Shown: positions 31,219 to 60,693 of the stretch, piece by piece
How the letters are laid out: every line of letters begins with the position of its first letter
How positions within the stretch are numbered: position 1 is the first letter of the stretch
Assembly: GCA_030390025.1 (NCBI GenBank)
Contig: CM059432.1
Span: forward strand, 16,432,001-16,496,000
Length of the DNA: 64,000 bases
Direction of reading: 5' to 3'
DNA from: Squalus acanthias
Taxonomy: Eukaryota
Position numbers and translations under genes: made by a program
Notes under the pieces: generated by a model
Database searches by the model: none
What the model saw: the letters and a program-made list of their open reading frames with translations, nothing else
What the model was told of the DNA's origin: nothing

Positions 31219-31434
31219 CTAGAGGGGTCTAGGCTGACCTCCTATCATTTTCAGTCTGGCTTGGTCAATAACATCCAGCAAATTTTTGGCATCAACGGCC
31301 AACGCATGCGCAGCTGTCAGCATCTGCTTCTTGTACTCGTGCTGGAGAGTTGTCATCACATATTGTTGGGCCAGCTTCATCTTTCCAATTAATTCCGCTA
31401 GGTCAGAGTTCAATAGCTTTTGTGCCATCTCGAT
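31219..31434 (-). CDS. PTK2: Focal adhesion kinase, last coding exon (FAT domain C-terminal part)
   Basis: Acceptor ttttatag; IEMAQKLLNSDLAELIGKMKLAQQYVMTTLQHEYKKQMLTAAHALAVDAKNLLDVIDQARLKMIGGQPRPL*; near-identical to the mammalian FAK C-terminus. Confidence 0.97.
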   Translation of the reverse strand: MEMAQKLLNSDLAELIGKMKLAQQYVMTTLQHEYKKQMLTAAHALAVDAKNLLDVIDQARLKMIGGQPRPL

Positions 31435-32686: not shown

Positions 32687-35600
32687 GGCTGAATTTTGCC
32701 AGCGCTCAGACGGCGGGTTCGCAATCAAAATCAAAAAGATTGACAGTGAGGCGGTATCCCACTCTAAACCCGCCTCTTTGTGAGCTTCCCTAGTGCCGGC
32801 TCTGCCTGCTCTTCACAGAACCGGCACTAAGTGGAGGGTCATGCAATTGAGATAGTTAAGAGGGTGGTTAAAGCAATTTCATCAGCATTTAACCAGGTAC
32901 AAACCATTTTCCCAAGTTTTTCACGAGGTTCACGTCGCTCGGGGGTCACGCCAGGTAAGTGTCGGGTTCTGAACAACTCTCCATTTCATGAATAGGTGAC
33001 AGCTGCAAAAGTGGTATAAAAGCTACCATTTCACAGCTGTTCACTTCCCAATCTTAGAAGCTGGAGCATTCATGATTTGGAATCCACTTTTGAGCTTTAT
33101 GCACTTTTGAAGTAATCTCTCTATCCACTGTCACCTCCTTGGAACAACCTATCTCAACATTGACAGATTACTTCTGTCATCTCAACCTCACCTGCCATTT
33201 ATTCCATCAGCATCGGTGTCCTTGAAAAAATCTCACCTTGGTCCTCAGAATCCCAACACGATCAACCCCAACACCAGCATCACTGGGCACACCAGCAGCC
33301 ACACCAACCTTCTCCGCAATCAACTGATGCTGCACTGGACACAGAAATCATCACCCGTGCACATTGCTGCCCGGACACCAGCGATGGCCTCACCATGTCC
33401 AGATTTGCTTCACTTAACACTGAACACCCTGGCTGCCACATGATGCACCAGGTTGGCACCACCCCACACCTCCCAGAGATGTCGGGGAACATAGGGTCTA
33501 ATGAGAGGGAGGAATTTAATGAAATCAGTATTTGTAGGGAAATGGTGTTAGGGAATATTATGGGATTGAAGGCCGATAAATCCCCAGGGCCTGATAATCT
33601 ACATCCTAGGGTACTTAAGGAAGTGGCCCTAGAAATAGTAGATGCATTGCTGGTCATCTTCCAAAATTCTATCGACGCTGGAACAGTTCCCATGGATTGG
33701 AGGATAGTTAATGTAACCCCACTATTTAAAAAAGGTGGTAGAGAGAAAATGGGGTAAGTCTGACATCGGTAGTGGGGAAAATGCAAGAGTCCATTATAAA
33801 AGATGTAATAGCAGAGCACTTGGAAAACAGTGACAGGATCGGACAAAGTCAACATGGATTTACAAAAGGAAAATCATGCTTGACTAATCTCCTGGAATTT
33901 TTTGAGGATGTAACTGGTAGAATAGATAAGGGAGAACCAGGGGATGTGGTGTATTTGGACTTTCAGAAGGCTTTCTATAAGGTCCCGCATAAGAAATTAG
34001 CGTGCAAAGTTAAAGCACACGGGATTGGGGGTAAGGTACTGTCTTGGATAGAGAACTGGTTGGCAGACAGGAAGCAAAGAGTTGGAATAAACGGGTCTTT
34101 TTCCGAGTGGCAGGCAGTGACTAGTGGGGTACCGCAGGGATCGGTGCTAGGACCCCAGCTATTCACAATATATATATAAATGTTCTAGACGAGGGAACTA
34201 GATGTAATATCTCCAAGTTTGCAGATGACACAAAGCTGGGTGGGCGTGTGTGCTGTGAGGAAGATGCAGAGAAACTCTAGTATGATTTGGACAGGTTGGG
34301 TGATTATAATGCATTTGCCATGCATCTGCCCAATGTGGATAAATGCGAGGTTATCTACTTCGGTGGCAAAAACAGGAAGGCAGATTATTATCTGAACAGC
34401 AATAGATTGGGAAAAGGGGAAGTACAATGAGACCTGAGTGCCCTTGTGCACCAGTCGTTGAAGGTAAGCATGCAGGTGCAGCAGGCGGTTAAGAAGGCAA
34501 ATAGTATGTTGGCCTTCATAGCGAGAGGATTCGAGTACAGGAGCAAGGATGTCTTGCTGCAGTTGTACAGGGCCTTGGTGAGACCACACCTTGAGTATTG
34601 TGTGCAGTTTTGGTCACCTTATCTGAGGAAGGATGTTCTTGCCATGGAGAGAGTGCAGCGAAGATTCACCAGACTGATACCTGGGATGGCAGGAATGACG
34701 TATGAGGAGAGATTGGATCGATTAGGCTTATATTCGCTAGAGTTTAGAAGAATGAGAGGGGATCTCATTGAAACGTATAAAATTCTAACAGGACTAGACA
34801 GACTAGATGCAGGAAGAATGTTCCCGATGGCGGGGGAGTCTAGAACCAGGGGTCACAGTCTAAGGATAAGGGGTAAGCCATTTAGGACTGAGATGAGGAG
34901 GAATTTCTTCACCCAGAGAGTGGTGAACCTGTGGAATTCTCTACCACATAAGGCAGTTGAGGCCAATTCATTAAATATATTCAAGAAGGAGTTAGATATA
35001 TTTCTTAAGGCTAAAGGGATATGGGGAGAAAGCAGGGACAGGGTACTGAATTTGGATGATCAGCCATGATCTCATTAAATGGCGGAACAGGCTCGAGGGG
35101 CCGAATGGCCTACTCCTGCTCCTATCTTCTATGTTTTCTATGTTTCTAGCACCATAAAGCATCCCTACATGTCCAAGCCATTCCTTTCACATTCATCACC
35201 ATTGTGGTGGGGGGGGACGATGACATGTTATGTCTCACCATTCACTGGAACTCACGAAGATACTTTTAAAGGTGCACACAAATCTGTCCAAGAAGGCAAA
35301 GTGGTGACAATAAGGATTTCAATGCTTGACAACACATTAACAGAAAGCTACACGAACATTGGCTAAAACACCCAAGTGCCTAGCCTTGTGTGTTATTAGT
35401 TGGTATGATTGGACTAGGATGAGGATGAGTGTGAGGGGTGGCTAGTGGGATGGGGAAGTGATAATGTAGATAGAGAGGGATGGGTGGAGGTGCAAGGTAA
35501 GTTAGTGTGAGTAAGGATGTGCAGGAGTAGGGAAGGGAAGGCAGAGTGATGGGGATGTGATGAGTGGCACAGGAGGACGAGGTTGAGTGTAGCTTTGCAG

Positions 35601-36055: not shown

Positions 36056-38580
36056 TGGGATGTAGGCGTCGCTGGCAAGGCCAGCATTTATTGCCCATCC
36101 CTAATTGCCCTTGAGAAGGTGGTGGTGAGCTGCCTTCTTGAACTGCTGCAGTCCATGTGGTGAAGGTACTCCCACAGTGCTGTTAGGTAGGGAGTTCCAG
36201 GATTTTGACCCAGCGACGATGAAGGATCGGTGATATACTTCTAAGTCAGGATGGTGCGTGACTTGGAGGGGAACTTGGAGGTGGTGGTGTTCCCATGCGC
36301 CTGCTGCCCATGTCCTTCTAGGTGGAAGAGGTCGTGGGCTTGAGAATTGCTGCTGAAGAAGCCTTGGCGAGTTGCTGCAGTGCATCTTGTAGATGGTACA
36401 CCAGTGGTGGAGGGGGTGAATGTTTAAGGTGGTGGATGAGGTGCGAATCAAGCGGGCTACTTTGTCCTGGATGGTGTCGAGCTTCTTGAATGTTGTTGGA
36501 GCTGCACTCATCCAGGCAAGTGGAGAGTATTCTATCACACTCGGCGGTAGGGATTGTAGATGCATTGGTAATAATTTTTCAAAACTCCCTGGATTCCGCT
36601 AAGGTCCCGGCAGACTGGAAAACTGCTAATGTAACACCCTTATTTAAAAAGGGCAGTAGACAGAAGGCTGGTAACTATAGACCGGTTAGCCTAACCATCT
36701 GTGGTAGGTAAAATTTTGGAGTCCATTATTAAGGAAACAGTAACAGGACATTTGGATAATCATAATTTAATAGGACAAAGTCAGCATGGTTTTACGAAGG
36801 GGAAGTCATGTTTGACAAATTTGCTGGAGTTCTTTGAGGAAGTAACATATAGAGTGGATAAAGGGGAACCAGTGGACGTAGTGTATTTAGACTTCCAAAA
36901 GGCATTTGACAAGGTGCCACACAAAAGATTATTGCTTAAGGTAAAAAATCACGGGATTGGGGGTACTATTCTGGCATGGATAGAGGATTGGCTATCTAAC
37001 AGAAAGCAAAGAGTTGGGATAAATGGTTCATTCTCAGACTGGCAATCAGTAACTAGTGGTGTTCCACAGGGGTCAGTGCTGGGTCCCCAACTCTTTACAA
37101 TCTATATTAACGATTTGGAGGAAGGGACCAAGTGTAACATATCAAAATTTGCAGATGATACAAAGATGGGAGTAGTGAGTGAGGAGGACATAAAAAACCT
37201 GCAAGGGGACATAGACAGGCTAAGTAAGTGGGCAGAGATTTGGCAGATGGAATACAACACTGGAAAGTGTGAGGTGATGCACTTTGGCAGGAAAAATCCT
37301 AGAGCAATTTATTATCTTAATGGCAAGAAACTGGAGAGTACTGAAGTGCAAAGGGATCTGGGGGTCCTGGTGCACGAAACTCAAAAGGTTAGTATGCAGG
37401 TGCAGCAAGTGATTAAGAAGGCAAATGGAATGTTGGCTTTCATTGCTAGGGGGATAGAATATAAAAATAGGGAGGTATTGCTTCAGTTGTACAAGGTATT
37501 GGTGAGACCGCACCTGGAATACTGCATACAGTTTTGGTGTCCTTACTTAAGGAAAGACATCCTTGCTCTCGAGGCAGTGCAAAAAAAGGTTCACTCGGTT
37601 AATCCTGGGGATGAGGGGGTGGTCATATGAGGAGAGGTTGGGTAGATTGGGACTCTACTCATTGGAGTTCAGAAGAATGAGAGGCGATCTTATTGAAACA
37701 TATAAGATTGTGAAGGGGTTGGATCGGGTGGATGCGGGGAGGATGTTCCCGATGACGGGTGAGACTAGAACTAGGGGACATAGTCTTAGAATAAGGGGCT
37801 GCTCTTTCAAAACTGAGATGAGGAGGAACTACTTCACTCAGAGGGTGGTAGGTCCATGGAATATGCTGCCACAAAAAGCTGTAGAAGCTACATCATTAAA
37901 TAAATTTAAAACAGAAATAGACAGTTTCCTAGAAGTAAAGGGCATTAAGGGTTACGGGGAGCGGGCAGGAATTTGGACATGAGTCTAGGTTCGGATCGGT
38001 CATGGCCCTGTGGGTAGTGGAGCGGGCCCAGGGACCGTGTAGCCTGATTCTGCTCCTATTTCGTGTGTGCAATTCTATTAGATGCAGGAGATGGTTCTGT
38101 GATAGATAGTAGATTGGCGGTTAGGATCAGATCAGCCATGATCTTATTGAATGGCGGAGCAGGCTCGAGGGGCCGATTGGCCTACTCCTGCTCCTATTTC
38201 TTATGTTCTTATGTTATGTACTCCTGACTTGTGCCTTGTAGATGGTGGAAAGGCTTTGGGGAGTCAGAAGGTGAGACACTCGCCGCAGAATACCCAACCT
38301 CTGACCTGCTCTTGTCGCCACAATATTTATGTGGCTGGTCCAGTTAAGTTTCTGGTCAATGGTGACCCCCCCCAGGATGTTGATGGTGGGGGATTCGGCC
38401 ATGGTAATGCCATTGAATGTCAAGGGGAGGTGGTTAGACTCTCGCTTGTTGGAGATAGTCATTGCCTGGCTCTTGTGTGGCGTGATTGTTACCTGCCACT
38501 TATCAGCCCAAACCTGAACGTCGTCCAGGTCTTGTTGCATGCAGTCATGAACTGCTTCATTATCTAAGGAGTTGTGAATG
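36056..38580 (-). mobile_element. Zenon/Crack-like LINE fragment split in two (36056-36541, 38219-38580) by a CR1 insertion
   Basis: The peptide TIYKAQVRS (right piece) joins VIEYSPLAWMSAAPT (left piece) when the CR1 is removed. Confidence 0.85.
36543..38218 (+). mobile_element. 5'-truncated CR1 LINE with an extended 3'UTR
   Basis: ORFs 36701-37630 and 37563-37982 (RT, frameshift at an A-run); tail ttcttatgttcttatgttatg. Confidence 0.92.
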
Positions 38581-39960
38581 GTACAGTGAGGAACTGTAAT
38601 TACATGCAGACCAGACAGGGTGGGGCTGGCAGGTTCTCTTCTTTGAACGCCATTGATTTTATTGGAGTCAGAGATCGTTAAAGGGGGCGAGGATGGAATT
38701 TAATTGAGGTTTTAAAAATTATGAAGGGTTTTGGGGAAGATAGGCACTGATTGTTTCCACTAATTGGTGAATCGGTAATCAAAGGCATACACACAGGCTT
38801 CAATAGGAGAAATGGGAAAGTTTGGAGTAATTTTTTTCCACAGTTATTAGAGCTTGGAATGCTTTATCATTGGTGGCTACTGAGGCAGACTATAGCATCA
38901 TTTAAAAAGGAATTGGATAAGTCTTTGAAAAGAAATGGCATAAAAGGATATAGAAAAGGGCAGGGAAATTGGATTACGGTAGATAGATCCATTTGAAGAG
39001 CTAGCAACAGCACAGGTATAATGGGCTGAATTTTCTTCTGTGCTATAATTTATATGATTCTACTTTTGTGATTTGAGTTGAAATACAGCATTGGATGAAC
39101 TATCTGTCTAATAGCTCCAAGAGTTCAAAGTGAAATGTGTCTGAGTATTCTCAATTTCACAGTACAAAAAATTACAGAGGCCAAATGTCAGGCATGTAAA
39201 CTACAAATATCAATGCTGATTCAGTAAAGATTCTTCTGCAAGTGGGGTTAAGACAGATTGTTGACGGCTGTGTAAAAGGAGATTTACCCTGCAGCTGGTA
39301 GTTGCTATGTATGACTGGAATGTGCTTGATACCATGTGCAAAAAGCAGGAAATGTTCTACTCTAAAATTTACACCTCATCTGTGTGAACATTTCTTTTTT
39401 TTTAAAAAAGAGAAAAGCTAGAAGTTTTACTAAAATGATCACATTCTTGAAATTAACAAATGAAACAAATTGTATGAAAATTGCTATAACACAAAAGACA
39501 TGCTCATTCTGAGTATTATTTATATATTAGTCATTTTCCTATAAAGTTGCACACAGGGAGTCAGGACCATGTGCAGTCTTCAACTGAAGCAAGGTTAGCG
39601 GGCTGGGGATATATATACTGTCCCCCCTAATTTAGTGTCATCATATATTTTGTCCTTATTTTTAATTTCCATTATAAACTCCACTGTCCACAATTATAAT
39701 GCTGCAATTAAAGCTTCCTTCTGGTGGTGGCACTGCAGTGTTTCCACTAGGGGGCATGTAGTTATAGCATAACAACGCAGGCTGTTTCCATTATAAATGT
39801 GGGCACAGGAATTTATAAAGAACAGGCTGACAAGAAGTGAGCGCAGATGCATTATGTACACCCATATACACACAAGATTGACTCATCAACTAGTGAAAGA
39901 GCTACTTTGTGAGCAGCGATCAATTTGATCAAACAAAGGCTAAAATATGTATTTGCTTAC

Positions 39961-40041
39961 CTCTCTATGGGTGCTTGCTGGGAGTGAAGGAATGGTTTCA
40001 TCCACTGTAGCCAATAACGTTCTTAATGCCAAACCAACCTC
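39961..40041 (-). CDS. PTK2: PTK2 coding exon (FAT domain)
   Basis: Acceptor ttctcag; EVGLALRTLLATVDETIPSLPASTHRE; donor GTAAGC; 81 nt, phase 0/0. Confidence 0.96.
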
Positions 40042-41190
40042 CTGAGAATACATTTACCAGAATCAAAGCACTGCTGACAATGTACTGATCAACTTGGTAC
40101 AGGACATGAACAGTAATACTCTCACTTCTTTATTCTTGTTCCAATTTAATAAAATTGAGTGCTGTTTGGCAGAACATGCTTCAATAAACACTTTATTCTT
40201 TATATAAACTTCACTGATTTGTGACACTCAAGCATTTTATTCAGCTAATCTCATATTAATTGCTCTTAGCCATGGTGAGCTAGGAAGAGACGACGCAAGA
40301 AGCCCTATATATTCCTGGTAGTAAGCTGATCTTATTTGGTTATTTTTCATTCCACTTTGGGAATGGCATTAAGGTTTGACAATATTTTAACACAAATTAT
40401 CTCATTACTCTGGGAAACGTTACGGAATTACCAAAGTCCTGTGGTTTATGGAAATGAAATAGACGCAATTCACATCAATAATTTCATAGATGAGTACAAA
40501 CCCCAAACTTTACTGAAGAGCACATTAATGTCTTGATCGATCCCAACATGCAGTTCAATATATAAAGTCTCACAAGCTTTGGGAGTTGGGTGGATTTTGA
40601 CGTGAAAAAGAAAACTAGGTTCCCTGCCAAACAAATCAAATCAGACACCCCTTATTTGGATTTCTTATCTTCATACAGCCATGAGGTTAGAAGGGCTGTA
40701 CCAGCAAAGGTCTGGGAACAGCACTTTAGGCAGGCAATTTGGAGATGGATAACAATGCATGGTAATTATCTACAACCCCATCAATTTTTGCTTTTAATTT
40801 TCTAACCCTCTTCAATATGATCTTACATCCTGCATCATTCCCCATCAGAGTGGCTTGGGCTATTTTTGCTTCTTGTTTTTAAAATGTCCGAGTATGTGAC
40901 ATTTTTCATTTCTTTCCGAGTGAGATTGTAATTTAGTGCTAATTAGGCGCAGTTTTGTGCTTGATTGGGCCTGCCCAACCCAATTTCCCACAGGACCCTC
41001 ACAGTCAACAAATACAGGCGATTTCCAACCCATAAATCTGTGTTTGATTTGATCCCAGAGGTGACAGGCCAGGGTCTAATCTTCTGTGTCCATCAAACAT
41101 GCTTGTTCGTACTTTTTCCAGAGACTTCGTGCTGATCAAGACCACAAGTGTAAAAGTATCCATAATACTAAATTTAAAAGCATTCCTCAC

Positions 41191-41346
41191 CTTCACCATT
41201 GGTATGTATTCCTCTGGAGGTGCTGGTTGGATTTTACTAGACATTTCTATCACTGCCTTCACCAATCCAGTTACATTTTCATACACTTTGTCATTGGAAC
41301 GGTCCAAGTTAGCTGTGGGTGGAGGGCTTATTTCTTGTGGCTGGAT
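41191..41346 (-). CDS. PTK2: PTK2 coding exon (S910 and Y925 equivalents, start of FAT domain)
   Basis: IQPQEISPPPTANLDRSNDKVYENVTGLVKAVIEMSSKIQPAPPEEYIPMVK; AG acceptor and GTGAGG donor; 156 nt. Confidence 0.97.
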
Positions 41347-41967
41347 CTAGATTACAAGAATCAAGTTGGTTAGCATCATACTATATTCCATTTCTTCAAA
41401 TTACAACAGGGATATCCCTGTTTGCCAGGTAAAAGAAATCTCTTTAGCTACATGATGGCACAGACACGATGGGTCGAATGGCCTCCTTCTGTGCCGTAAA
41501 TTTCTATGAAATTTCTATGAGTAACTGCAGAATATCATAGAATCATAGTATATACTTGACAAAAGAATTCCCAGCTGTTAACTGCATTTCATTTCTTAAC
41601 AATGCCACAATGGTTAGTCCCTTGTGTGAACATTTTCACACATCAAGGACATGTCAGTCAGCCTTAGTACTGAAGACACCAACTACAAAAACTGCCGTTC
41701 CCTCAAAACAGAATATATTGTAAATAATAGATAGCAACACAATTTCAAGGCTGTAATTTAACTATGGGGTTTAGTTCACTATTGCATTGCTCACATAGCC
41801 CAGGGCACCACCTCCTCTCAATGAGATTACTATTATCGTTCAAGAATCCATTATTCTCAAAATACCCACTGATTTGAAAAAGTGCACAAATGTCTTTCAA
41901 AGCATTTGGTAGCTAATGACTGCCAAATGATTCAAGAAAGCAAAGTTACACCAAATGTACTTAATAT

Positions 41968-42541
41968 TGGGCATTGGTGAGACCACACCTGGAGTACTGC
42001 GTACAGTTTTGGTCTCCTTATTTAAGGAAGGATATACTTGCATTAGAGGCAGTTCAGAGAAGGTTCACTAGGTTGATTCCTGAGTTGAAGGGGTTGTCTT
42101 ATGAGGAAAGGTTGGGCCTATACTCATTGGAGTTCAGAAGAATGAGAGGTGATCTTATTGAAACATACAAGATTCTGAGGGGGCTTGACAGAGTAGATGC
42201 ATGGAGGATGTTTCTCCTCGTGGGGGAATCTAGAACTAGGGGGCATAGTTTCAGGATAAGGGGTCGCCCATTTAAAACGGAGATGAGGAGGAATTTCTTC
42301 GCTCAGAGGGTCGTGAATCTTTGGAATTCTCTACCCCAGAGAGCTGTGGAGGCTGAGTCATTGAATATATTCAAGGCGGAAATAGACAGATTTTTGAAAA
42401 ACAGGGGAATCAAGGGTTATGGTGAGCGGGCAGGAAAGTGGAGTTGAGGCCAAGATCAGATCAGCCATGATCTTATTGAATGGCGGAGTAGGCTCGAGGG
42501 GCCAAATGGCCGACTCCTGCTCCTATTTCTTATGTTTTTAT
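41968..42541 (+). mobile_element. 5'-truncated CR1 3' fragment
   Basis: 157-aa ORF VRPHLEYCVQFWSP...GYGERAGKWS plus a CR1 3'UTR. Confidence 0.92.
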
Positions 42542-45500
42542 GACTCTCTGCTCGAAGATCTATTGTAAGTATCAGTCTTGTTACAGACATCAGTTGCCAT
42601 ATCTTTTTGGTACAATTGAAAACAATTACATTGTTGAATTGAAACAAAACATTACTTTTAACTCTTTCTCCCAAAACTGAACCAAAACTAGGAGGATGCA
42701 CTCTTTTTAAATAAATGGGAGTTCTTGCAATTTGTAGGAATAAATAAGCTTAATTAACTTTCTAACCCATCAATTTAAAAAGTCTGAATACTGGAACCTA
42801 AGAGATACTGAGCATTAAAAAAGTCTTGGGTAAGCCAACAAAAGGGATGACATTATGATCAACTGAAAAATAATGAATAACCCAGAAGAATATATTTTAG
42901 AAACATTTCACTAAAGCATTCATCCCTTGAGGACTACGGCTGTCTCTGCATCTGTCCCGCCCCACCCTTGCAAAATTATGCCAAAGTTAGAACTATTCAT
43001 AGCACAGAACTTAAACAACAGTACTCTTAAATAAAACTGTTTATGACATTCACCATTACATAAAGCCTCAAAAATTAGAGTTTAAAAAACTTTTGAGTAG
43101 GTAGATGAGATTTTCATCCAAGTAACAATGTAAAAACCTGATTTTTTTTAAATTAACCTTTTTTGTACATTTTTGTACTCATAAGTTATGTGAAGGATGT
43201 AAATGCTGGAAAGTTGAATACTCTTTTAGTTTTGGCACCAAGTGCCAGGAACAACCATTCCTGAATTAAGGGCAGCTGAGTCAGATGGAGAGGAAAGATC
43301 CCTCTACTCTGTGCCAGCAGTGTGCTGTAACTCCAATCTCCAAGCAGTTACCAGACCAATTTTGTCATTTCCCACGCAGCTATTCTTACTGCCGCACTGA
43401 GTAAAACCTTAAGTTTAGTACCAATGAAGTGCTAAAAATATGGACATTATTATGCTGAATTTGCAAGAAAATGGACTGCTAAATCTAATTTCATATAGGA
43501 CCCTTACAACCTTGACACCATCTTCTTCTCTGCATGTTTGGGCTGGATTTAAACAGAAGTTGGAAAGGTGAAAATTCTGTGTGCTGATTCACTGTTCCAC
43601 CCAGTTCCTCACTGGCTGATAATTTGTATGATGATCTATACTAGAACAATACATCTTTATTTGAGACACGCAGAACTCTGTGGAAGGCAGAGAAGTCTGT
43701 TTGACAACTTAGAAGTTTAATATGCAGAAACACACAAAATCGGACAAGAGAAGAGAAAGATTCATCACTCCCATTAGTTAATGTAATATTCATGTAAGTG
43801 ACGAGACAAAATGGTGAGAAAGGTTAAACAAAAACAAAACATAACTACACACTAAACTGAATAAAACAAAGAAACTTCTGTCCCTCCATAACCTTGGAGA
43901 AAAATCAAGGGCCATATGCTTATGTGCAGCAAACGGTTTTAAGTCTTCAAATGATCAATTAACTATGACATGACTCTTCCGAATGAACTGGTTAAGTAAA
44001 AGTGGAACAATTTAATCAATCGCACATAACTTAGCAAATGTTCAAATCAAGCATCCTGAGCTCTGCAGTGGAACAATAAAAACCCTCGCAAAACATCTAC
44101 CAAGCCCATGCGTTCACTCGGGAGCCTTACATGTACATTGAGTAGGCTACGTACAGAATCTCATTCTAATAACAGATTCTACCAGCAATTCGTCAAAACA
44201 AGGCCACAGGAACATTGATAAAAGTTCTAATTGATTCAAAATCAATTTAAAACATGTTAGTAAAAGGGTGATTACAACAACACTCAAGCAATTAAGTTGA
44301 ATATGTGTTGTTAGATACACAAACAGTTATTGTTTAATTGTAACATCTGAAGGTGACTAGAAAAGGGAGCACCCATTTTCTGCAAAAAAGAGGCACAAAT
44401 TGATCGCTAACTTTTCATTAAAAGCTCAATTTCCTTGTTTATTTCACTTGTAAAAGGATACATTTGTACATCATTTGGTAAAGCAATATTCTGCAAGCTA
44501 GTATGGACTGTAGAATCTCATGACTATTTTGGAATTGAGAGTTATTTTGTACAGCACAGACATGTTTGTACCATGGCAACAGATTGCTACCGCACTTTCC
44601 CTTTAGGTTCAAAAATTAAATGATACTGAGAGAGGTTTTGTGGCAATTATTGAAAAAGTTGCATAAACACCAATGCCTGAAAGGCTGTGTGTTTAAAACA
44701 ACATGAAATTGTTTTGCCTTTTTTAGTATTTATAATTAAAAAAAAAATGTGCAGTTGTGCTGAGATCACTTGCGCTTGATGACTGTTGATGTGCTGAAAA
44801 TTTAAAGCTTTGTACAAAGTTCCCCCCATACCAATTTAAGAAAAAATGTGTCTGGGAGGAGGTCACGAATAACTTTGGGTTAAATTTAATGAAACGTTAA
44901 CGAGATTGCACTGTCAGTGTTCATCACTCACTTCATGAGTTACAAGAAGTCACTGAAATGACAATATAATATTCATCCACAGAAAGAACACAGCCACTGC
45001 CAGAAACTTGATCATTCCTAGCAGGTCTGTTTTTAAACCCACAGCATGAAGAAAGGAAAGTACTAGTCAAGTTAGGTGAAAATCCCAAATTTATTTATTT
45101 TTTGGTCAATTTACTTTGTTTAGGTCTCTCTCTTCCCCCAGTCCATTGTGGTACACACAAAGCCTGAACAAAACAGCCAAGCAGACAAGGGAATGCTCCT
45201 TGGCCTCTGTCTGTTTCACTCTTGAAGCAGCTCAAGTTGACCAGTCAACTAATTTTTCTACTTCAGTGGAAACACCTAGTAATCCCAAATGGTATGGAGT
45301 TCGAAAAATGTCAGAATGCCGGGCTGCACCAAAGCAAAATATTGGGGCGTTCCTAAAATTAAATTTTTTATTTTGTGGAGGTGATAGACTACTACTTATA
45401 GACAGGGAAACAAGGACCAATGATAAGTTCTGAACATGCCTACTTTGAAAGGTAATCCAGTATCTGACGAGAAAAGGGCACATGCAAAGTTTAGTCAAAA

Positions 45501-46679
45501 GGCAATATTATAATCACGAGAACATTTTGTAACTTGTGCTTGGCTGGTTTTCTATTTGAAGTGGGAAATATGGAACGAGAAAGTTGAATACATAGTGATT
45601 ATTAATTCACAATAGAATTGCTTTGCAAATTAAGTAAAGCCAAATAATCTTGTCCTTGCTGATCACTAATGTATTCTTTGTCTCTCTATCATTGTTCCAT
45701 TTTTTGTCCATGGTTAATCATCCAAGCTAGGAGAAGTGTAAAGCTCATGCGACCAACACTATGGCTGCTGTGTAGATCAAACTGTAATAGCCCAATCCTA
45801 ACAAGGATGCAAGTTTCTCTATCCGCACTGGACACTGGGAAAAAACTCATAGGAGGACTGATTATAGTATTACACCCTGCTGCGGTGGAAATGCAAAATC
45901 AAGAGGTACAAGGCAACTGCCAATGCACAGAGCACGAGCACTACTGAAGTAAAGTTCTCACTTAGATTGTGTCCAGTAGTAATCACCAATTTCTCTAACT
46001 TCATTTCAGAATCTTAGCCATGAAATCACAATCCTAATTAGAAGTTGTCAAATTAATATAATTTGGTTACTGTGTGGCCATTAATTGCCGATATCTTGAA
46101 TTCTAATACGGCTGTTTGAATTTCAAAAGTGGCATATGAATTCTTAAATGGGCCATATTAAGCCATATTGTAACAATTTATAATTAAAAAGGTTTACTGT
46201 AGTCCACAGTACACAATTAACTGAACTAAGTAGATGTTTCTCACCTAGTGTTCAACCATCTGGAATGCACTGCCTGAAAGGGTGGTGGGAGCAGATTCAA
46301 TAGTAACTTTCAAAAGGGAACTGGATATATACTTGAAATGGTGCAATTTGCAGGGCTATGGGGAAAGAGCAGGGGAGTGGGACTAACTGGATAGTTCTTT
46401 CAAAGAGTCAAAGTAGGCACGATGGACCGAACGGCCTCCTTCTGTGCTGTATGATTTTATGAAATGCTTTTTTTTTTTAAAAACCCTTATTTATTCAAGC
46501 ATAAAATCTGCTAGAAAGAGCACGACTGTTACAATAAATCTATTTAAATGTTTAACTGTTTTAAAAGAAATATGTTGGAATTATACAGCCCTTTTCATGT
46601 CACCTTGAAGGAACAGAGACGATAATTACAAGTTAGACAAAAATTAAAAAGAAAAAATATGCACATATTATTTGCTTAC

Positions 46680-46688
46680 CCTCCATGG
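46680..46688 (-). CDS. PTK2: PTK2 alternative 9-nt microexon encoding Pro-Trp-Arg (FAK+ insert)
   Basis: Minus strand reads ...ttcaccacTAG|CCA TGG AGG|GTAAGC; phase 0/0; lies between the exons ending NEGVK and starting IQPQ, where mammalian FAK+ has PWR. Confidence 0.93.
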
Positions 46689-49600
46689 CTAGTGGTGAAC
46701 ACAATGTGAAGGAAGGTTAAAGAAATTTACCAAAAGGGGAAAAAAAGGAAAACAATTATTAAAAATGCAGCAAGCAAACCAATAATGCAATGTGCAGTTA
46801 ACAAAATGATGTTAAAAGCTGTGAAGAAAATGCATTCTAAAAATATCATGCATCATCAAACTTGTTAGAGCGCAATTTAAAAGCTGTGCACACAATTTCA
46901 TTTTCAAAAGTTATTTTTGTTGAATGAAAAGCATTCTTTAAAATCATGCAAATTAAATCACTGGAACATAGCAAACAAATAATAAAGTCACTTGGTTAAA
47001 TTTAAATAGTTCTACTGCACAGAAAAGAAACATTAAAGCAGGGAAAGTGGACAAATGTTTGACTTTCCAATGAAAGCGATAAAAAATTATAACAGCTAGT
47101 AATGCAACCCAAAGGATAAAAACTCAAATAAGGTACAATGAGAAACTGTGATAACAGATTTGTGTATTGTACAATAGAACAAGATTACCGTTATACAACT
47201 GCATGTCTAAATTGACACCATAAATCATTTCCCATTCTTCGTTTTGCATCTACTAGTAGAGGTGTGATATAGGAAAATGCTACTTCTAAGTAACAGTGGA
47301 AAGGCCTTTAAAGGACAGATGGGTTAACATGCTTCCCAACATTATGAGTTTAGTAAGTATTATTCTATATTCCACTTGCCCAAGATTGAATAAATGATTG
47401 ATTTAAACCTGTATTTATGCAATTGTTTTTTTAAATGCAACAGTCATGACTCTTGGTGATTCAGAATCGTAATGCTTCAATGCCAGCAAGAATTTTGCCT
47501 TTTTTCAGGGAGATGTGCGGCTTTAAACCATGGAAGGCCTGCACAGTAACCTGGAGGAGTGGATCGCCACCTGTTGTCAAACTCACTAGACTTTCCTCCC
47601 ATTGATTTCAAAGTTGAAAATCATGCCCTATTATGCTCTATGTTAAACTATTTCTGAAAATATTTAATCTGAACAATATTCTCATTTTCTGTATGAAACT
47701 CCCTCCAAATTTAACCTTTTAATTTATTTTCTAACCTGTTCATACATAAATGCCAATTAGAATTCATTAATTCTTGTCTAATGCCACCTATTTCCATTCA
47801 CTAAATAGCATCTCTGTGATCTTTGCACACTTCCTTCACTGAACTTAAAAAAAAAAAAGTATACCCTTCTACTTCTACCCTGCTTCACTTGTATAGATAA
47901 GACTACTTACTGCCAGGATATTTATATCGTGTTTCTAGTTTAGGCTTTTCTCACGAACAAAATAAGCATCGCTTTGCAGACATTTGGTCATGATTTAAAG
48001 ACAGATTAAGAGTGAAATGGAGACTCACTCTGTGATATGCACATAGTTTAGCCTTAAAAGAAAAACGTTATCATAACAGTTAACCTCATCCTAACTCAAT
48101 GCTTGCAGGTCAACATAGAGGGATATATTACAGAGTTGTACAACATTAAAGGGGTTTACATGCCTAACTATAAGATGCATCACTGCCTGAGAGTGCACCC
48201 TTAATGAGTCATTCTGTATCATATAAAATTACATACCATATTTCTATATAATATAGAATAACTCATAAGAGTGTACTCTCCGGCAGGGACAAATGAAAAT
48301 TTGGAATGGCACTGAGAAGTTATCTGCCAGAAAGTATCTGTGATTGCAGCACATGGCTTAAACTGCAGTAATATTTAATTGTGCACCTGAAACTGCAGTG
48401 CCCACTTAGCTTTATAGGTAAGCAGACTGTATATAAAATAGGCCAACACCAAAGTCCAAGGAAGAACTGTTATTTTTGTCAATTCTCCTTCCTAATACAT
48501 TCATCATTACAAGTCATTAAATTCCCTACTTTTTCATTCAATAATAGTGTAGTGTTTGCTTCTTTAACAACAATTCTGATCTTCAAGTCAGAGGTTTTAG
48601 AATTTTAGAAAATGTGCAACAGTACATGGGTGGATTTACTGTGGCATGGTAATATAAAAAGTGCAAAAAATGAACATGTTCTGAGGAGGATAGCGCTAGA
48701 AGATATGGGACCTATAACCAGCGCCACTACTTTAGAGGTGAGCAATAATTACACAATCCTAAGTTGTCCATTTTCCTTATTCTTTTGCAAGTTATGGTTT
48801 ATCATGCAGAATATAGGCATATATCACTATCAGATAGGTTTTTTTATCAAAATGGAGAACAAAAATGCATGATATTAAAGGGGTTGAGGGGGAAAATTCC
48901 ATAGAATTTCTTTGCTCAGCTAGCCTTCCTACCAGTGCAATGCAGAAGTGAAAGTCAGTTTGGTTTCTGAAACATTTGCTCAGAGAATCTCACTTTCAGG
49001 CACAATAATTAACTGAATAATTTTTATATCATTGTATTTTTGTTTCACTGATACAAAAAGAAAAAATACAAAGGAGCATAAGATTGTCCTTTTTGACGAG
49101 GTTAATACTGTCTTTCATCAAATTTCTGTACAAAAGACTTGTCATAACTGAATGTTATCACTGGTTGACAGGTTAATTGTTAACAGACTGATTGCAAAGT
49201 ATTTTACTGTAATTATGTAGCTATTTTAATTACTAAAAAACCCAAAATTGGAACACAAAATGAAGGATCACTAGTACAATAAAATGATTGAAAGTGTTTT
49301 TAGCAGTATTTACAAGAGGAAAAGGAAAACTTGAAGCTTGGCAACTATAAGCAGCATAACAGGAAAAAATTACGAAATCCTTTACATTAGCAGTGCAGTA
49401 AGCTCAAGCATATTGGACGAGGATCAAGTTAAACAAGAATTGTCTGGTGCCAACGCATGAAGCTGTAACTAATTATAAAACTGAAGATAGGTTCAGTGTG
49501 GAAGAGACAGAAGGAAAGGGGAAAATAAAACTAACACTATTTACTAATTCTCCTTCAGGAGAAGGATTTTCAGAATGCTTTTCTTCTTTTTTGTAATTAA

Positions 49601-51199
49601 TTCTCAGAATGTGGGCATCCCTGGCAAGGCCAGAATTTATTACATCCTAGTTGCCCTGAGAAGGCGGTGGTGGGCCTTCTTCTTGAACTGCTGTAGTCTG
49701 TATTCTTTTTAGTGACTGATATAACTGAGTGGCTTGTTAGGCCACTTCAGAGGGCAACCACGTTGGTGTGGGACTGGAGCACTGCTGCGAGCAACCCAGG
49801 AGAAAAATCACATGGGCTTTACAAAAAATGTTTTCTTTGAACACTTTTATTTATTAGTTGATTGGAGATTGGAAAAAAGGCTGTTTGACAGTCAAGAATC
49901 ATCCAATCAGGTAACGAAGAGTCTGTGTGCCTTCCAATTGGTGGGGGAAGGTGGTACACCGCGAGGATGGACGTTTCAGGTGATCGATGGCAGAAGTGTG
50001 AGGACGGGCGGTTGGAGTCAGGAAGTCACGTGATGAAACCCCCAGAAATATGTCCAACCAGAGTAGGCAACCCTAGTCTCTGTCCTGGTTCATCTAGATA
50101 TACTGGCCCGGAATGTGCGGTTGTAAGGACGCCGAAACTGTCAGCGTTTGCTGTCATTACAACTGTGAAACTGACAGCAACTTCTGCCGTTTGCACATGC
50201 TCAGTTACACGCAGAAATCCAGAAGTTGCTGTCAGTCATTCTCTGCTCCTCCGCAGGGCGCGCTGTTGAACACCCCACAGCTAGTGATCAATTAAAATCA
50301 CTGAACTGATGGGAACTTCAGCTTTTATGCTCTAATATTGCTGTTAAAATCCCCCCAAAAAGTTAAGCCTTGTTCAATGAGGTGTAACTGGATTTTTAAT
50401 GGTGTACTGAGTCATAACTACTGCTGAACAACCGTACTGGCCCTGAAAAACTAATTTTATATTTGTGGAATGATAAAAATTCCATGGTTTTTAATATAAT
50501 AACTTTTTTAAAGTTTGTTTATGATATTTCAGCTTCTACCTTAATCCCATGTGTATGTCCCAATCTTTATTTCGCCTTCTGTAAAATTTATTAAAAGTGA
50601 AGGATAATCAGTGCATTTTACTTCCTGGTTTGCTGTCTGTGAGAATTCTTCAATGTGATTGGCTGCTTAGCCAGTTTGATGACATTACCGTTGCTGGACA
50701 CTGGAGATCCCCTCGACTTGGCGCCAGATTCAAATTAACGCCGGGAGAGGTGAAATCCACGCCACAGAGATCGCTAGATCTTTGTGGGCAGCTTTCTTTG
50801 AGGTCACAAAATCTGGGTCAATATGTTCTGTAACATCACCTAATTAATCAGTACATTGCAACATGGCATTGAATCAGTACCAATAACTTGAAGTGCTCTC
50901 TTAAAGAGAACTATTTATAATAAGCTACTGTACTTTTATCTTTCTCGACCCATATCCATCATATTTTCTGCTTGTCTTCAGAGAATTAAAACAAAAAGTA
51001 ATTCAGTGAAGACAGTGTTGTTAGTTCTGGCATATAATGTCATTCATAATTTTAGGTTAAGCGACAGCAGAGTAAAAATAAATAGAATTTCACATTTCTT
51101 CAACTGACACAGATGTTTCAAATGATCTTTCAAGTCCTTGGACTGCTTATGTTTCTGGTTTGCTTTCCATAAGGCCCCACATTGAAAGCTAGTTGTTGA

Positions 51200-51560
51200 G
51201 GTGTATTTTTAAAATTCTCATCCTTGTTTTCAAATCCCTCCACAACCTCCCTCCTCCCTATCTCTGTAACCTCCTCCAGCACTACTCTGAGATCACTGCG
51301 CTCCTCCAATTCATCGCTCCACCATTGGCGGCCGTGTCTTCAGCTGCTGAGGCCCCAAGCTCCGAAATTCCCTCCCTAAGCTTCTCTACCTCTCTCTCCT
51401 CCTTTAATTTGCTCCTTAAAACCTACCTCTTTGACCAAGCTTTTGGTCACCTGTCCTAATATCTCATGTGGCTTGGTGTCAAATTTTGTCTGATAACATT
51501 CCTGTGAAGCACCTAGGGATGTTTTTACTATGTTAAAGGCACTATATAAATGCAAGTTGT
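51200..51560 (+). mobile_element. L2-type LINE 3' fragment
   Basis: IFKILILVFKSLHNLPPPYLCNLL...LLKTYLF; tail ggcactatataaatgcaagttg. Confidence 0.75.
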
Positions 51561-53019
51561 TTCCCAACACGAAAGGTGTCTAAGCTATGAAATAGGCAAC
51601 AGTATGTGACGCACAAGTATTTGAAAAGGAAAGGTGAGGGGAAAAAAGCAAAGCGGAAATTAAAAAAATAGAAGCATTAGGTGAACCAAAACTTGAGACA
51701 ACAAGTAGTGGGATGGAAGTTTGAGTCCATGATCTCATATTTCTATTCTCAGGCACATCACAATGGGAAGCATTGACTGGGAGTCAGTTACTTTCAATAA
51801 AAGAGAAAGAGGGAAAATCAGACAGGTCCATTCCCAGCCTTTTCTAGCCTATTTCATAGCGAATGGTTACAGTCCCTTTAAGGACCACTCGGCAGAGTTT
51901 GTGTGGCGCATGTTCCATTCACTGGTACATGAAAATTGCGTCAGGGTCTTACTTACGACCCAATTTAAATACTGAAATAAGGCTGCCGCTTGTTTTTGGG
52001 CAGGAACATTTTGCCGCCCACTCGAAAATTGAGTCGGGTAAACCTTGGTTGTCCAATGGGTGAGAGATTTTTAAAAAGAATTTTGTCTGCCGACCGCCCC
52101 GATTTTGAGTGTGAACGGGGCGGTAGGCAGACAAAAATAGCCCAAGAGAGTGAGTACTGGCAGGCTATTCATTCTTGGAGGGCGTCACAGTTGAGCACAA
52201 TCCAGGATTCACCTGAAAACCACACAGCAGGAGTCCGAGCCCCAGCTGATCTTTTGCTTCCCTAGCCCACTGAGGCCAATTATAGTGTCCCCAACTGCTG
52301 GCCTGGCTGAGATCAGCTTACTTAGCACAGACCTGCAATTGAATCTGGGAGCTTATGATCTTTAAGACTTAGTGCTAGACTGGGCATTGCCTTTGCCCAC
52401 TAGATTAATTTGAAGAAACAAACTTGGATGAGCTGTATAGCATGGCATCTTATATAGTATGGTGAAATAGACTATTTTGCAGCCGTTAAGAAATGGCAAA
52501 ACCTGTCTAAGTGATTCTTCAGGATAACATTTTCAAAACAAGATATATTTTGTTCCCTGATGGTGCCTTTAAGTACACTCCACTCATTATATGCTCCATG
52601 GGAACCAAGCAGTTTTGTTTATTTTAAATGAAAGAACCACAGTCCATTTCCCATACAGCTGCACAAAATACAGCATGAAAACTTCAGCAGTCAAGGTTTC
52701 GGTACTTCGGAGAGCCTTCAAAGGATGGTTCAATTCCTTTTCGTTTGTTCCCTTCCTCCACATTGCTTAAAAAAAAAGCATAATTTTTTTATTTGTCTTA
52801 TAACTGAAAGTAACTTCTGGTCATCGCTTTTGACTAGTGGCACAGCTGTGTTACGAAACATTGGACCATAGTTGTTTCCTGTTTGTTGATTTAGGTTTAT
52901 ATTGTTCAGCTTTATGAGAAAGGGTTGGGCTTCAGCATGTGATTTTTGTTCTGAAATGGTCCAAAAGCAAATTTTTATACCTCCGTATCATGTCTAAACA
53001 TCTAAAAGCACACATACAT

Positions 53020-53830
53020 ACAAAGAAGCTCCAACACAGAACTAGGCCCTTTGCCCCAACCACTCTGTGTCAGCATTTACCCTCCATCAAGCAAATCGTC
53101 CTAATCATATTTACCCCTGTGTTTCCATATCAGCTCATCCCTTTTTCCTTCATCCACCTATCCAATCTAACCTTGAATGTTGACATAGTTTCTGTCTCAA
53201 CCACTAACCCTGGAAGTGAAATCCACAGCCTCATAACTCTCTACATCCTGCCCTCTGTTTTAAATCTCTTACATTTAATCAGGTCCTTCGTTGCAGACCC
53301 CTCAACTACTGAAAAGAGATTGCTTCTATCGATCTTGTCCCATCCTTTCATAATTTTAAACACTTCTATCATACTGTCCTGTAATTTGTGTTGTTCGAAC
53401 AGAAAAAAGCCCCAAATGTTCAAGTCTCTCTTCATACTTGTATTTCCTCATACTAGACAGCACCCCAGTGAAGCTGCTTTGTATCCCTCGAAAGCCTCAA
53501 TTTCCTTCTTATAGTGTGGCGCCCAATACGGCACACAGCACTATAACTGAAGTCTTATTATTTTAATATAGGCTCATCATTACCTCTTGGCTATTATATT
53601 CTATACCTCATGATAAAATCTAGAGTTCCATTCATTTTTAATGGCCTTATCAACCTGAGGTGCAGCCTTTAATGTCCTGTGAAAGGATAGGATATCCCCA
53701 AATCCTTTTGCTCTTCCGTAGCATCAAGCCTACTTCCATTCAGGGTATAATTACTGCTATTTTATTTTAACCAAAATGATCACCTCACACTTACTGACAT
53801 TGAATTCCAAGAATTAACCACATCTCCTAT
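53020..53830 (-). mobile_element. Old CR1 3' fragment
   Basis: Minus-strand MIEVFKIMKGWDKID...LFS; heavily decayed. Confidence 0.65.
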
Positions 53831-54207
53831 TTTGGTATCTTCTGCAAATTTCAAGGCCACTCCCTCTAGGTCTTTTCTACCTGTACTCCCAACTTTAAGA
53901 TCTTTGTACCTGCGCCCCTGGATATCTTTCTTCTTCCACTCCATTAAGAGCCAGAAACAGCCAAGAGATGAAGGACCAACAAATCTGTTTTATATTGATT
54001 AAATTGTTGTGGGAAGAATATTGGCTGGGACATGGGGAGAATTTCTGTCTTATCTTCACATAGGACCATGCATCTTGAAATCCATCTGAACTGGCAATCA
54101 GGACCTTCTATTGAAGTCTATCCAAAGGACAGAACCTCTAACAATTCAGCACTCCCTTAGTATTGCATCAGAATGTCAATCTAGATTATGGCCTTTAAGA
54201 AAAACAG

Positions 54208-54365
54208 CAAATGCTAAAGTATCCATCAGCATCTGAAAAGAGAAAAGGGTTAACGTTTTGGATGTAGACCCTTTGTTAGATGAAGGATCTGTACCCAAAA
54301 TGTTAACCTGTTCTTCCTCTTTTCAGACGTATGTGTTGTGTATTTCTAGAACTTCTGTTTTCTCT
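54208..54365. mobile_element. Decayed Penelope-type inverted-repeat element
   Basis: Imperfect arms tctgaaaagagaaaagggttaacgttttggatgtagaccctt / aaggatctgtacccaaaatgttaacc...cttttcaga; related fragment at ~16680-16750. Confidence 0.55.
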
Positions 54366-54929
54366 TAAATTTCAGATCACTGGGCAGAACTACATGGTGT
54401 CATGTAAGGGTGGAGCTTGATACAATAAGTTTGTTCCCAGACTGCCTTTAATCAGCAGTTCAATATAATAACAAAGGGTGACTGAAAGACACCAATAACT
54501 ATTCAGATACCTCCCTTTATAATGTTGAGGAATGATGAAACCATTCAGTACTATATGCTTCCACTTTAATTAAGTAAATCATTAAAATAGTAGCACGTGC
54601 AGCACATCAAAACGACCCAGTCCTTAAGGGGATATCATTACAGAGTTAGTTTGCTGTAAAATGAAATACATGGTTTAAAAAAAGTGAATCTCCCTGATGA
54701 TTCAGTGAGTAGATAATCCAGGATTAGGCTTGGCCTGAAGGTAAAATGGCTCTACAACTGTCAAGGTTCACAAATGAATAATGGCAACATATCAGAGGCC
54801 AACTGGTACCCATGAACCATATACAGTACCAGCAAGCAATCAGCACTTTCAGGAGAGGAGAAAATAATATTGACAAGAAAAAAAGGTAAGTTAATAGTTT
54901 ATGGTACTATACATGGGCAGATAATGTGA

Positions 54930-55530
54930 AGCCACATAAATACTGTGGCAACAAGAGCAGGTCAGAGGCTAGGTATTCTGCAGTGAGTGTCTCACCTCCT
55001 GACTCCCCAAAGCCTTTCCACCATCTACAAGGCACAAGTCAGGAGTGTGATGGAATACTCTCCACTTGCCTGGATGCCAACACTCAAGAAGCTCAACACC
55101 ATCCAGGACAAAGCAGCCCGCTTGATTGGCACCTCATCCACCACCTTAAACATTCACTCCCTCCACCACCGGCGTACCGTGGCTGCAGTGTGTACCATCT
55201 ACAAGATGCACTGCAGCAACTCGCCAAGGCTTCTTCGGCAGCACCTCTCAAACCCGCGATCTCTTCCACCTAGAAGGACGAGGGCAGCAGGCGCATGGGA
55301 ACACCACCACCTCCAAGTCACACACCATCCTGACTTAGAAGTATATCGCCGATCCTTCATCGTCGCTGGGTCAAAATCCTGGAACTCCCTACCTTACCTA
55401 ACAGCACTGTGGGAGTACCTTCACCACACGGACTGCAGCGGTTCAAGGCGGCGGCTCACCACCACCTTCTCAAGGGCAATAAATGCTGGCTTTGCCAGCG
55501 ACGCCCACATCCCATAAACTAATAAAAAAA
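54930..55530 (+). mobile_element. Zenon/Crack-like LINE 3' fragment
   Basis: IYKAQVRSVMEYSPLAW...TIQDKAARLIG; A-rich tail at ~55521-55531. Confidence 0.85.
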
Positions 55531-56160
55531 AGAGCTTCAACCCTTTCACCATGAGGTGCTGGCAAAAATCTGTCCATTTTTTTCATAAGCATATGAGATC
55601 CCTTTATTTTCCCTCCTTTTCACACTATAGAGGCTTTGTTAGGCTATTTGCTTCCAGCAACCAAAAGCACCTAGCTGCTGAACAACTCCCCATGGTTTAG
55701 CTGGGAATTCACTGGAGTTGGAGATTGAAATCAATCTATTCATCTGTTGGCAGTGTCCATTAGCAGGCCAACACAATACTGCCATTGTCCATTTCTGTAG
55801 AAACTGTTATGAACACAGGCACTTAGTAACGATACATATAATTTAAAAATAGGCAGAGAGGTATTTTCATAAATTATATGGCAATCTGGAAGGGCAATTA
55901 CGTGATTCAATTTTCTTCTTCCTGGTGCTCACCTACCGATTGTACAATTCGAGCATTTTCTGTTTTTATTGAAAAACACATAGAATTGTAGTGGTTAGAA
56001 ACCCATCCAGTTCCCTACTACCAGAAGCTTTTATAAGGATTTACCTGTAATCTTGTAAAACAATCAGCTCCTACTCAAACTAATGCCTCAAGTAAAAGAT
56101 GCATATAATTATAATTTTTGACAGGATGGCTCAGGTGCAGGTTTTCATACAAATGCTAAC

Positions 56161-56267
56161 CTTCACTCCTTCATTGTAACTGTCAATTGGACTGTTTAGG
56201 CTGGCAATGCTTCCTCCATGGCTAGGGGCACCAGGTCGAGGTGGCTTCTTTGGTGGTGCTGCATGCT
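56161..56267 (-). CDS. PTK2: PTK2 coding exon (C-terminal proline-rich region)
   Basis: Acceptor ttccaatag; (E)HAAPPKKPPRPGAPSHGGSIASLNSPIDSYNEGVK; donor GTTAGC; 107 nt, phase 1/0. Confidence 0.96.
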
Positions 56268-58072
56268 CTATTGGAAAAAAGAGTAAAATAGAACAAAACT
56301 CTTATTGCATTGATTGTTATGATACTGGCAGCCTGGAAATAGTACATCTCTGCAGGCCGCTGCAATATCAGGCTGCTCGGCCAGCCTCTGGGCCCGAAGG
56401 AGGTTATTTCTTGGGGTGGAATTGCAGCGGCCCAGGCTGGTTTTGTGGAGCCTGGAGGAGCACTCCAGTCTAACTTACCTTTCAGGTCCTCTTTGACCCA
56501 GCCGACAGCTGATACTAGCTGGAGAATGCACGGCACACACACAGCACAAAAATGGCATTGAGGTCCTGTTGACATCATAGAGCCCTGAATTAAATATTTT
56601 AATCAGCTGGGTGTCCTCTTCAGGTGGCTGCTTGGGCTGGCTACTCAGAGGACCCCAGCAAAATGGCGAAGGCCACTGCGATGGTGGCAATGGGGCGATA
56701 AGATGTTACACTCCATCTTCAGGTTGCTACCACCCAGTTTCCATCGGTTGGGAGGCCTGAAAACTCAGCCGTATAAAACTAAGTATTCTACAGATGGTCT
56801 CCCATTATTTCCTTATTTCCCCCTCTCACATAACTCGCTGGACCAAAACAACAGAAAATAAAGTTACTTGCACAGCCACTTTACAACCAGCTGTAAAGAA
56901 GTGCAATATAGACCTTGAGATTCCACCATCGTTCTTCCTTCTGTTCCTGCAGGGATGAACCTGATCTCAAGTAGGCTAGAGTCAACATGTGGCTTGAATG
57001 ACAATATTGAAAGGAAAGTTTAAGATTTCTAGGTCATTGGGAGCTGTTCAAAGCTCTCCACTGACAGACTTTGTTAAGATAGAAAGCTTGGCGTGTGGGG
57101 ATCCTACAAATAAGCAGTTGGAGATTGGAGCACAAACTCACCAAGTCGCCTAGTAATCAACATACCCCTTTTAAGGAGTACAGTTACTTTGGAAATGGTT
57201 TTGAACATTCAGAGTTTCTTCCGTTTGATAGTGAATTCATCTTCAATTTTGAACATTTTCTCCAAGATAGAGAAGCACTTGGGGTTTAGTTACAGGAATG
57301 GCCATAAACCAGTATTACTTTACACCCAGTTAACCTTAGAACAGAGGTGGATGTCTAGCCTTATGAAACCTATGGTTTTAACCAACTGAAAGGTGAAAAA
57401 TAGGGCAATGGTGGCAAAAATGTCCATCATAAACATTTCTTTAAAAAAAAACTTATTTAAAATTAAAATCTCAAGAATACATATCATGTATACATTGTAG
57501 ATTTTGATTACAAAGGTGTATATTGAAATGTTCCAGTTTCTTGGCACGACTGTGCTTTCACAGCAATGCAGGTTCAGTGGTTGTGGCAATTTGCATGTTC
57601 TTGGTCCCTGGATTCAGTTGGGCCTGTGAGTGGCAGAAAGAGTCTTTCCCTCCTAGTAATCATGCTGGACAGGGTCATTGTCCTTCAATGTTTGCATGAC
57701 CCAACCCAAAGGTAACGGTGTATAGTTTAAAGGCCAAAGGTTTAGTTTGTAACCTCACTTTCCTTTTATCTGTGCTATTTCTCTCCCAATACATATGCAA
57801 GTTAAAATCTCCCATTATCATCACATTTGTTTTCTTGCTGTACATAAAAACATTCCTCTATTAAGTATAAAGGTCAGGATGACTACAAAATAATCTCATC
57901 AGTGTTACTCCCTTTCCCGTATTCATTCTATCCAGTGTATCTGCTTGCTGATTACACTCATTTAAATCCCTCTTTTCTATCACCATGATGGTACCCTTTC
58001 CTAAAACTGTTTTTACTCCACTTTCTTATATATTTACTTCCCAATTCTGACTGTAACTGAGTGCCAGTAATT

Positions 58073-59808: not shown

Positions 59809-59848
59809 CTTGTTTACCTACAGGTTGATAGATGTGTTGATTGCCAGT
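59809..59848 (-). CDS. PTK2: PTK2 coding exon containing the Y861 equivalent
   Basis: Acceptor ttttctttag; TGNQHIYQPVGKQ plus one base; donor GTAAGA; 40 nt, phase 0/1, in frame with the next exon (G+AG = Glu). Confidence 0.95.
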
Positions 59849-60630: not shown

Positions 60631-60693
60631 TGGATCCAGGACACCTCCATCATCCCGATCAACATTGTTTCTCATGGACCTTGGATCGGGTTT
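60631..60693 (-). CDS. PTK2: PTK2 coding exon (most 5' exon found in this window)
   Basis: Acceptor cttttcag; KPDPRSMRNNVDRDDGGVLDP; donor GTAAGT; 63 nt, same length as and alignable to human KPDVRLSRGSIDREDGSLQGP. Confidence 0.9.

Follow-up and report, generated by a model that had tools for sequence, protein, structure and literature searches.

A 9-base Pro-Trp-Arg microexon in a shark FAK/PTK2 gene as the probable orthologue of FAK+ exon 31

The nine bases CCATGGAGG at 46688-46680 on the minus strand of the 64,000-nt stretch of DNA analysed here (the window) are interpreted as orthologous, in a shark, to FAK/PTK2 exon 31, a cassette microexon that preserves the reading frame and goes back at least to the last common ancestor of the jawed vertebrates (probability about 0.93). 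The exon itself is already known: its description dates from 2006 or earlier, and the public models of six cartilaginous fishes contain it. As reported in the accessible text of PMC1570463 (2006), the exon 31 peptide PWR is 100% conserved from human to fugu and zebrafish and the exon occurs in no invertebrate, with its presence inferred for the vertebrate ancestor; the word 'shark' has 0 occurrences in that paper. The FAK+ exon 31 of mammals, birds, frog, and teleosts, as far as it is described there, and the shark exon share the gene, the 9-base length, the tripeptide, the optional use, and the placement after the proline-rich exon and before the first FAT exon, while they differ in that the former was studied in non-cartilaginous vertebrates and the latter is known here from sequence and predicted models. 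In mammals, FAK+ is enriched in brain and neurons (accessible parts of PMC1570463 and PMC6563491) and, in the text available for PMC6563491, is described only in neurons. No literature naming exon 31 in a cartilaginous fish was found, though the supplements of bioRxiv 10.1101/2024.09.17.613571 (47 jawed vertebrates, shark included) or subscription papers may list it, and the supplements of PMC7821500, PMC13281805, and PMC12868881 held nothing on exon 31.

Read directly on the minus strand, the sequence runs from TAG through the 9-mer to GTAAGC, exactly as an earlier note on this DNA had claimed for 46680..46688, such that the codons for Pro-Trp-Arg are bounded by AG and GT. The 13-base word composed of AG, the 9-mer, and GT has one occurrence in the window when up to one mismatch is allowed (expected, 0.09; matched in 9 of 100 shuffled windows). 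The two flanking exons (Table 1) are separated by 14,814 bases (9,472 + 9 + 5,333), and their junction words, each with a single occurrence, mark the end of the upstream exon at 56161 and the start of the downstream exon at 41346. Both of these edges are codon boundaries (microexon phase 0-0) and Pro-Trp-Arg is therefore added without a frame shift, which bears out the earlier placement of the site in phase within an interval of ~14.8 kb.

The host gene is FAK/PTK2. Solved FAK chains agree with the downstream exon in 50 of 52 residues (E = 7.6e-29), and the exon contains the start of the Pfam domain Focal_AT (E = 8.8e-13); PYK2 was rejected as the host gene because its match to the same exon is far weaker (only about 1e-7 to 6e-9). 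A tblastn search with shark FAK proteins mapped six coding exons on the minus strand between 60693 and 31219, the final one with the stop codon. Over the 219 residues of these exons, identity amounts to 218 residues for Heptranchias, 217 for Pristiophorus, 216 for both Carcharodon and Heterodontus, and 212 for Callorhinchus, the scored bony vertebrates (four) reach 172-191, and no scored protein was identical to the exons of the window (best, 218/219). The source, previously described as a probable cartilaginous fish, can on this comparison be narrowed to a shark.

In some models of Amblyraja (P0134), Hemitrygon, and Stegostoma, the upstream exon begins with one additional, optional residue, a pattern that suggests a putative tandem acceptor. 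Past the PTK2 stop codon, candidate polyadenylation hexamers are located at 30831, 30629, 30430, 30142, and 28770 on the minus strand. Fragments of LINE-type retrotransposons with endonuclease and reverse-transcriptase Pfam hits occupy the plus strand at 26329-29100, 33742-34179, 36695-37630, and 63285-63812, and are thus antisense to PTK2, in its introns and downstream of the gene.

Table 1. Coordinates of the PTK2 exons, the microexon with its splice sites and upstream flank, and the decoy site in the window.
Feature	Position	Strand	Basis
PTK2 coding exon, 63 nt, kinase-FAT linker	60631..60693	-	tblastn with shark FAK proteins; splice sites
PTK2 coding exon, 40 nt	59809..59848	-	tblastn with shark FAK proteins
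PTK2 exon upstream of the microexon, exon 30 equivalent, proline-rich motif, 107 nt	56161..56267	-	tblastn with shark FAK proteins
Decoy AG-(Pro-Trp-Arg codons)-GT word, not an exon	55221..55229	-	inside dispersed repeat
AT-rich upstream flank, possible regulatory sites	46817..46988	-	
3' splice-site region: TAG acceptor, 128-base AG-free zone, distal pyrimidine run	46689..46816	-	
Cassette microexon, 9 nt, Pro-Trp-Arg, probable FAK exon 31 (FAK+) orthologue	46680..46688	-	splice sites; shark FAK tblastn; protein models
5' splice site GTAAGC	46674..46679	-	donor score rank
PTK2 exon downstream of the microexon, exon 32 equivalent, Ser-Pro-Pro-Pro site, FAT-domain start, 156 nt	41191..41346	-	Focal_AT
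PTK2 FAT-domain exon, 81 nt	39961..40041	-	tblastn with shark FAK proteins
PTK2 last coding exon with stop codon, then 3' UTR	31219..31434	-	tblastn with shark FAK proteins

The splice sites of the microexon stand out within the interval on the donor side and in the extent of the region cleared of AG upstream of the acceptor. The donor score ranks third of 832 GT dinucleotides, and the AG-free zone, the second longest gap among 959 AGs, compares with 24-46 bases at six constitutive acceptors. The last 40 bases before the microexon are 67.5% pyrimidine, which ranks sixth of 383 candidate microexons (in-frame units of 3-30 bases) and falls within the range of the six constitutive acceptors (50-78%). 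The long pyrimidine tract that had been noted earlier is consequently ordinary where it adjoins the exon, and it is further upstream that a pure pyrimidine run is found, at 46752-46732 on the minus strand (-64 to -44 from the acceptor). Candidate branch-point words occur at about -32, -113, and -127.

Orthologues of the exon were sought in 122 named cartilaginous-fish FAK proteins from 22 species, a sample in which large clusters are partly included (e.g., 15 of 109 members). Pro-Trp-Arg is present at the junction in 29 of the 122 listed proteins, with 89 joining the flanking exons directly and four not spanning the junction. Six of the 22 species possess the insert among the proteins listed (Callorhinchus milii, Amblyraja radiata, Scyliorhinus canicula, Carcharodon carcharias, Chiloscyllium plagiosum, and Rhincodon typus), representing one chimaera, one skate, and four sharks of three orders, and all six have predicted models (RefSeq XP) both with and without it. 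The RefSeq FAK isoforms XP_007895462.1 (C. milii), XP_032875790.1 (A. radiata), and XP_041044943.1 (C. carcharias) carry the same tripeptide at the same junction between near-identical flanks, but stem from cartilaginous species other than that of the window. The insert also aligns with those of paddlefish, lungfish, killifish, and human. Due to its presence in proteins of both lineages (chimaera, skate, and shark on one side; paddlefish, lungfish, teleost, and human on the other), the exon originated before cartilaginous and bony fishes split, as the earlier note had proposed, a date that is already implicit in the RefSeq inserts of the six species and in the vertebrate ancestor inferred in 2006 (accessible text of PMC1570463).

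Beyond the jawed vertebrates, all eight hagfish FAK models (five from Myxine and three from Eptatretus; P0397 and P0514-P0520) lack the insert at the exon 31 junction, which is weak evidence given the apparent annotation dropout described below and leaves room for a jawed-vertebrate origin. The narrower claim, that the exon is of jawed-vertebrate and not of pan-vertebrate origin, has perhaps an even chance of being correct. No lamprey protein was identified among the outgroup proteins. For the distant representatives P0397-P0449 (53 of the 150 listed), 43 could be anchored and 10 were dropped for a poor or short anchor, with the tripeptide present in one of the 43 (P0428, a vertebrate-like fragment). 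A search of shorter proteins returned no unnamed shark-like protein across the junction, as the unnamed ones checked resemble bony vertebrates (19 proteins, one named human isoform), and a metagenome scan yielded a single locus from 497 candidate stretches (L001), which extends just 58 bases beyond the FAT exon on its upstream side and ends short of the microexon. One of the Eptatretus models (P0514) has an optional insert where the 7-residue FAK microexon is situated.

The distribution of the insert amongst the cartilaginous fishes follows the age of the gene models. No insert-bearing model exists for 16 of the 22 species among the proteins listed, in keeping with the earlier remark that the exon is easy for annotation to miss. 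The insert occurs in 6/6 species whose RefSeq accessions lie between XP_007 and XP_048, compared to 0/15 from XP_051 upward among the proteins listed, where Pristiophorus, having no visible accession, is left out; the association is significant by Fisher's test (p = 1.8e-5), a value that overstates the case as five of the 15 newer species are represented by one protein each. RefSeq accession order is taken here to reflect date, and a changed read aligner in the annotation pipeline could presumably explain the dropout. Species of the same genus differ accordingly in their models, with the insert present in 11 and absent in six of those from Chiloscyllium plagiosum (one not spanning) and in 0/20 from C. 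punctatum, and in 4/6 from Scyliorhinus canicula and 0/5 from S. torazame. In the isoform alignments, all of the newer-annotated species (8/8) keep optional inserts of six or seven residues and none has the 3-residue insert, which all of the older-annotated species have (4/4). This pattern suggests that recent automatic annotation may lose the 9-base FAK exon and retain the FAK microexons of 18 and 21 bases. As newer annotation seems to drop the exon, its absence from recent gene models should in practice not be taken as evolutionary loss.

Despite the match in sequence and position, the site could in principle be a chance intronic look-alike, with the true exon elsewhere in the interval or absent. 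Under an order-1 Markov model the AG-(Pro-Trp-Arg codons)-GT word is expected 0.002 times in the interval and is observed twice, so the bare pattern alone is no proof. The second word, at 55229-55221 on the minus strand, was rejected as the true exon: it is part of a dispersed repeat, is preceded by sequence of 32% pyrimidine with a 1-base AG-free zone, and has GTTGCT as a poor donor. The reported site is outside the repeat intervals obtained from self-comparison of the window and is the only one of the 383 candidates to pass a filter that combines donor score, pyrimidine content, and YAG; the thresholds of this filter were chosen after the site had been seen, and its weight tables are approximate. 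A look-alike at 46688-46680 is extremely improbable. The dispersed repeat family of the decoy has a further copy of the look-alike at 36362-36370 on the plus strand.

It is likewise highly improbable that the exon, though real by descent, is silent or degenerate in this shark lineage and that FAK+ is not made. Such a loss would fit the lack of insert-bearing models in Heptranchias (0/3) and Pristiophorus (0/6) among the proteins listed, the closest relatives by protein, but the 9-mer, its acceptor, and its donor are all intact, the donor is top-ranked, and absence from the models tracks accession age, not kinship. Read contigs of putative RNA origin from four of the 24 sets that match the last exon and 3' UTR, of which none is recorded as RNA and which carry no tissue label, were aligned to 39901-59900; repeat-derived contigs dominate this region, the bin of the microexon is without depth, and the 15 of 346 joints listed include no exon-exon joint, constitutive ones included. 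A different account of the origin is raised by 46692-46680 (acceptor and microexon), which is identical over 13 bases to 56225-56213 within the upstream exon, also on the minus strand but in another frame, and is the only 13-base word common to the 14.8-kb interval and either flanking exon. It is very unlikely that the exon was a jawed-vertebrate innovation by local duplication of this piece of the upstream exon, subsequently read in another frame. The 13-base identity and the hagfish models, all eight without the insert, are possible support, while the four non-teleost bony vertebrates aligned have His-Leu-Gly where sharks have His-Gly-Gly, a hydrophobic residue seems to occupy that position in hagfish, silent positions should have drifted over such time, and a lack in gene models counts for little. 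As the bony vertebrates differ there at the peptide level, the shared word is probably a coincidence, likelier than a trace of duplication; it can mislead the mapping of junction reads.

The orthologue of exon 31 in the shark would normally be skipped and would enter the mRNA chiefly in neurons, and by analogy with human such neural enrichment is somewhat probable. A strong donor together with an extended AG-free zone and its distal pyrimidine run would leave room for regulators, and release from PTBP1 repression would be the best-supported switch by analogy with human. PTBP1 knockdown in U87MG cells raises the inclusion of PTK2 exon 31 according to the accessible part of PMC12140307, and the primer sequences of its Table S2 correspond, as judged by eye, to the two flanking exons. 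CU-rich (PTBP1-type) words upstream of the shark exon are not enriched (5; mean, 6.4). The 300 bases before the microexon (46988-46689) contain seven UGCAY words, two of which are UGCAUG, compared to a maximum of five in 273 other overlapping windows, the motifs having been chosen after the sequence had been viewed. UGCAUG is an RBFOX-type motif, and the cluster may mark possible regulatory sites, as a lead. YCAY words over -300..+309 are as numerous as expected (10 vs 10.2), with four at -21 to 0.

With respect to regulation only, the exon may instead be a classical neural microexon driven by SRRM3/4 and UGC and not chiefly gated in a PTBP1- or RBFOX-type manner, an option that is possible at odds well short of even. 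As described in the accessible text of bioRxiv 10.1101/2024.09.17.613571, SRRM3/4-regulated neural microexons are short and frame-preserving, with a strong donor, a distal pyrimidine tract, and conservation from shark to mammal, an architecture into which the shark exon fits through its length of 9 nt, its preserved frame, its strong donor, and its pyrimidine run set back to -64 to -44; the same source gives UGC in only 74-79% of such exons and describes the motif as not strictly required. The likeness is architectural. The shark exon differs from the class in having no UGC close to the acceptor: none occurs within 80 bases and the nearest, at -81, precedes the proximal branch-point candidate (-32), such that a UGC between branch point and AG holds only if the branch point is one of the distal candidates (-113 or -127). 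No literature tying PTK2 exon 31 to SRRM3/4 was found. PTK2 microexons in the related literature, in the text available, are described near phosphorylated regions or Tyr397, and the accessible part of PMC12868881 has three, for which a correspondence to exon 31 is not evident.

At the protein level, Pro-Trp-Arg would fall in a presumably unstructured linker that follows the third proline-rich motif and precedes the FAT bundle. An AlphaFold model of an insert-bearing whale-shark protein (P0040), weak overall (mean pLDDT, 53.5; pTM, 0.27), places the insert (residues 227-229) in coil, with pLDDT <50 over 157-245 and the FAT helices starting at 243, which suggests that the linker around the insert is unstructured. 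The serine of the Ser-Pro-Pro-Pro site occupies position 7 among the residues encoded by the downstream exon, with the insert six residues before it, and corresponds to human Ser910, which is phosphorylated by ERK and then bound by PIN1 (accessible text of PMC6162372). The insert may tune a short binding or phosphorylation motif near the Ser910 equivalent and leave the fold unchanged, though short-linear-motif tuning as the specific mechanism is a tentative proposal. The FAK+ insert is stated to be of unknown function in the text available for PMC10376711, and that three such residues are unchanged across the jawed vertebrates argues for tests beside the Ser910 site.

Several additional features of the interval and its surroundings were recorded. 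The local RNA fold around the microexon is ordinary (z = -1.36), Rfam returned 0 matches, and no tandem repeats were found in 28000-64000. An open stretch of 75 bases with fair splice scores is present in the same interval at 51501-51427 on the minus strand; it overlaps the repeat interval 51310-51561, had no tblastn match with three shark FAK proteins, and is probably not an exon. The intron upstream of the microexon also contains near-perfect short inverted repeats at 52081-52136 (21 bases) and 50170-50236 (17 bases).
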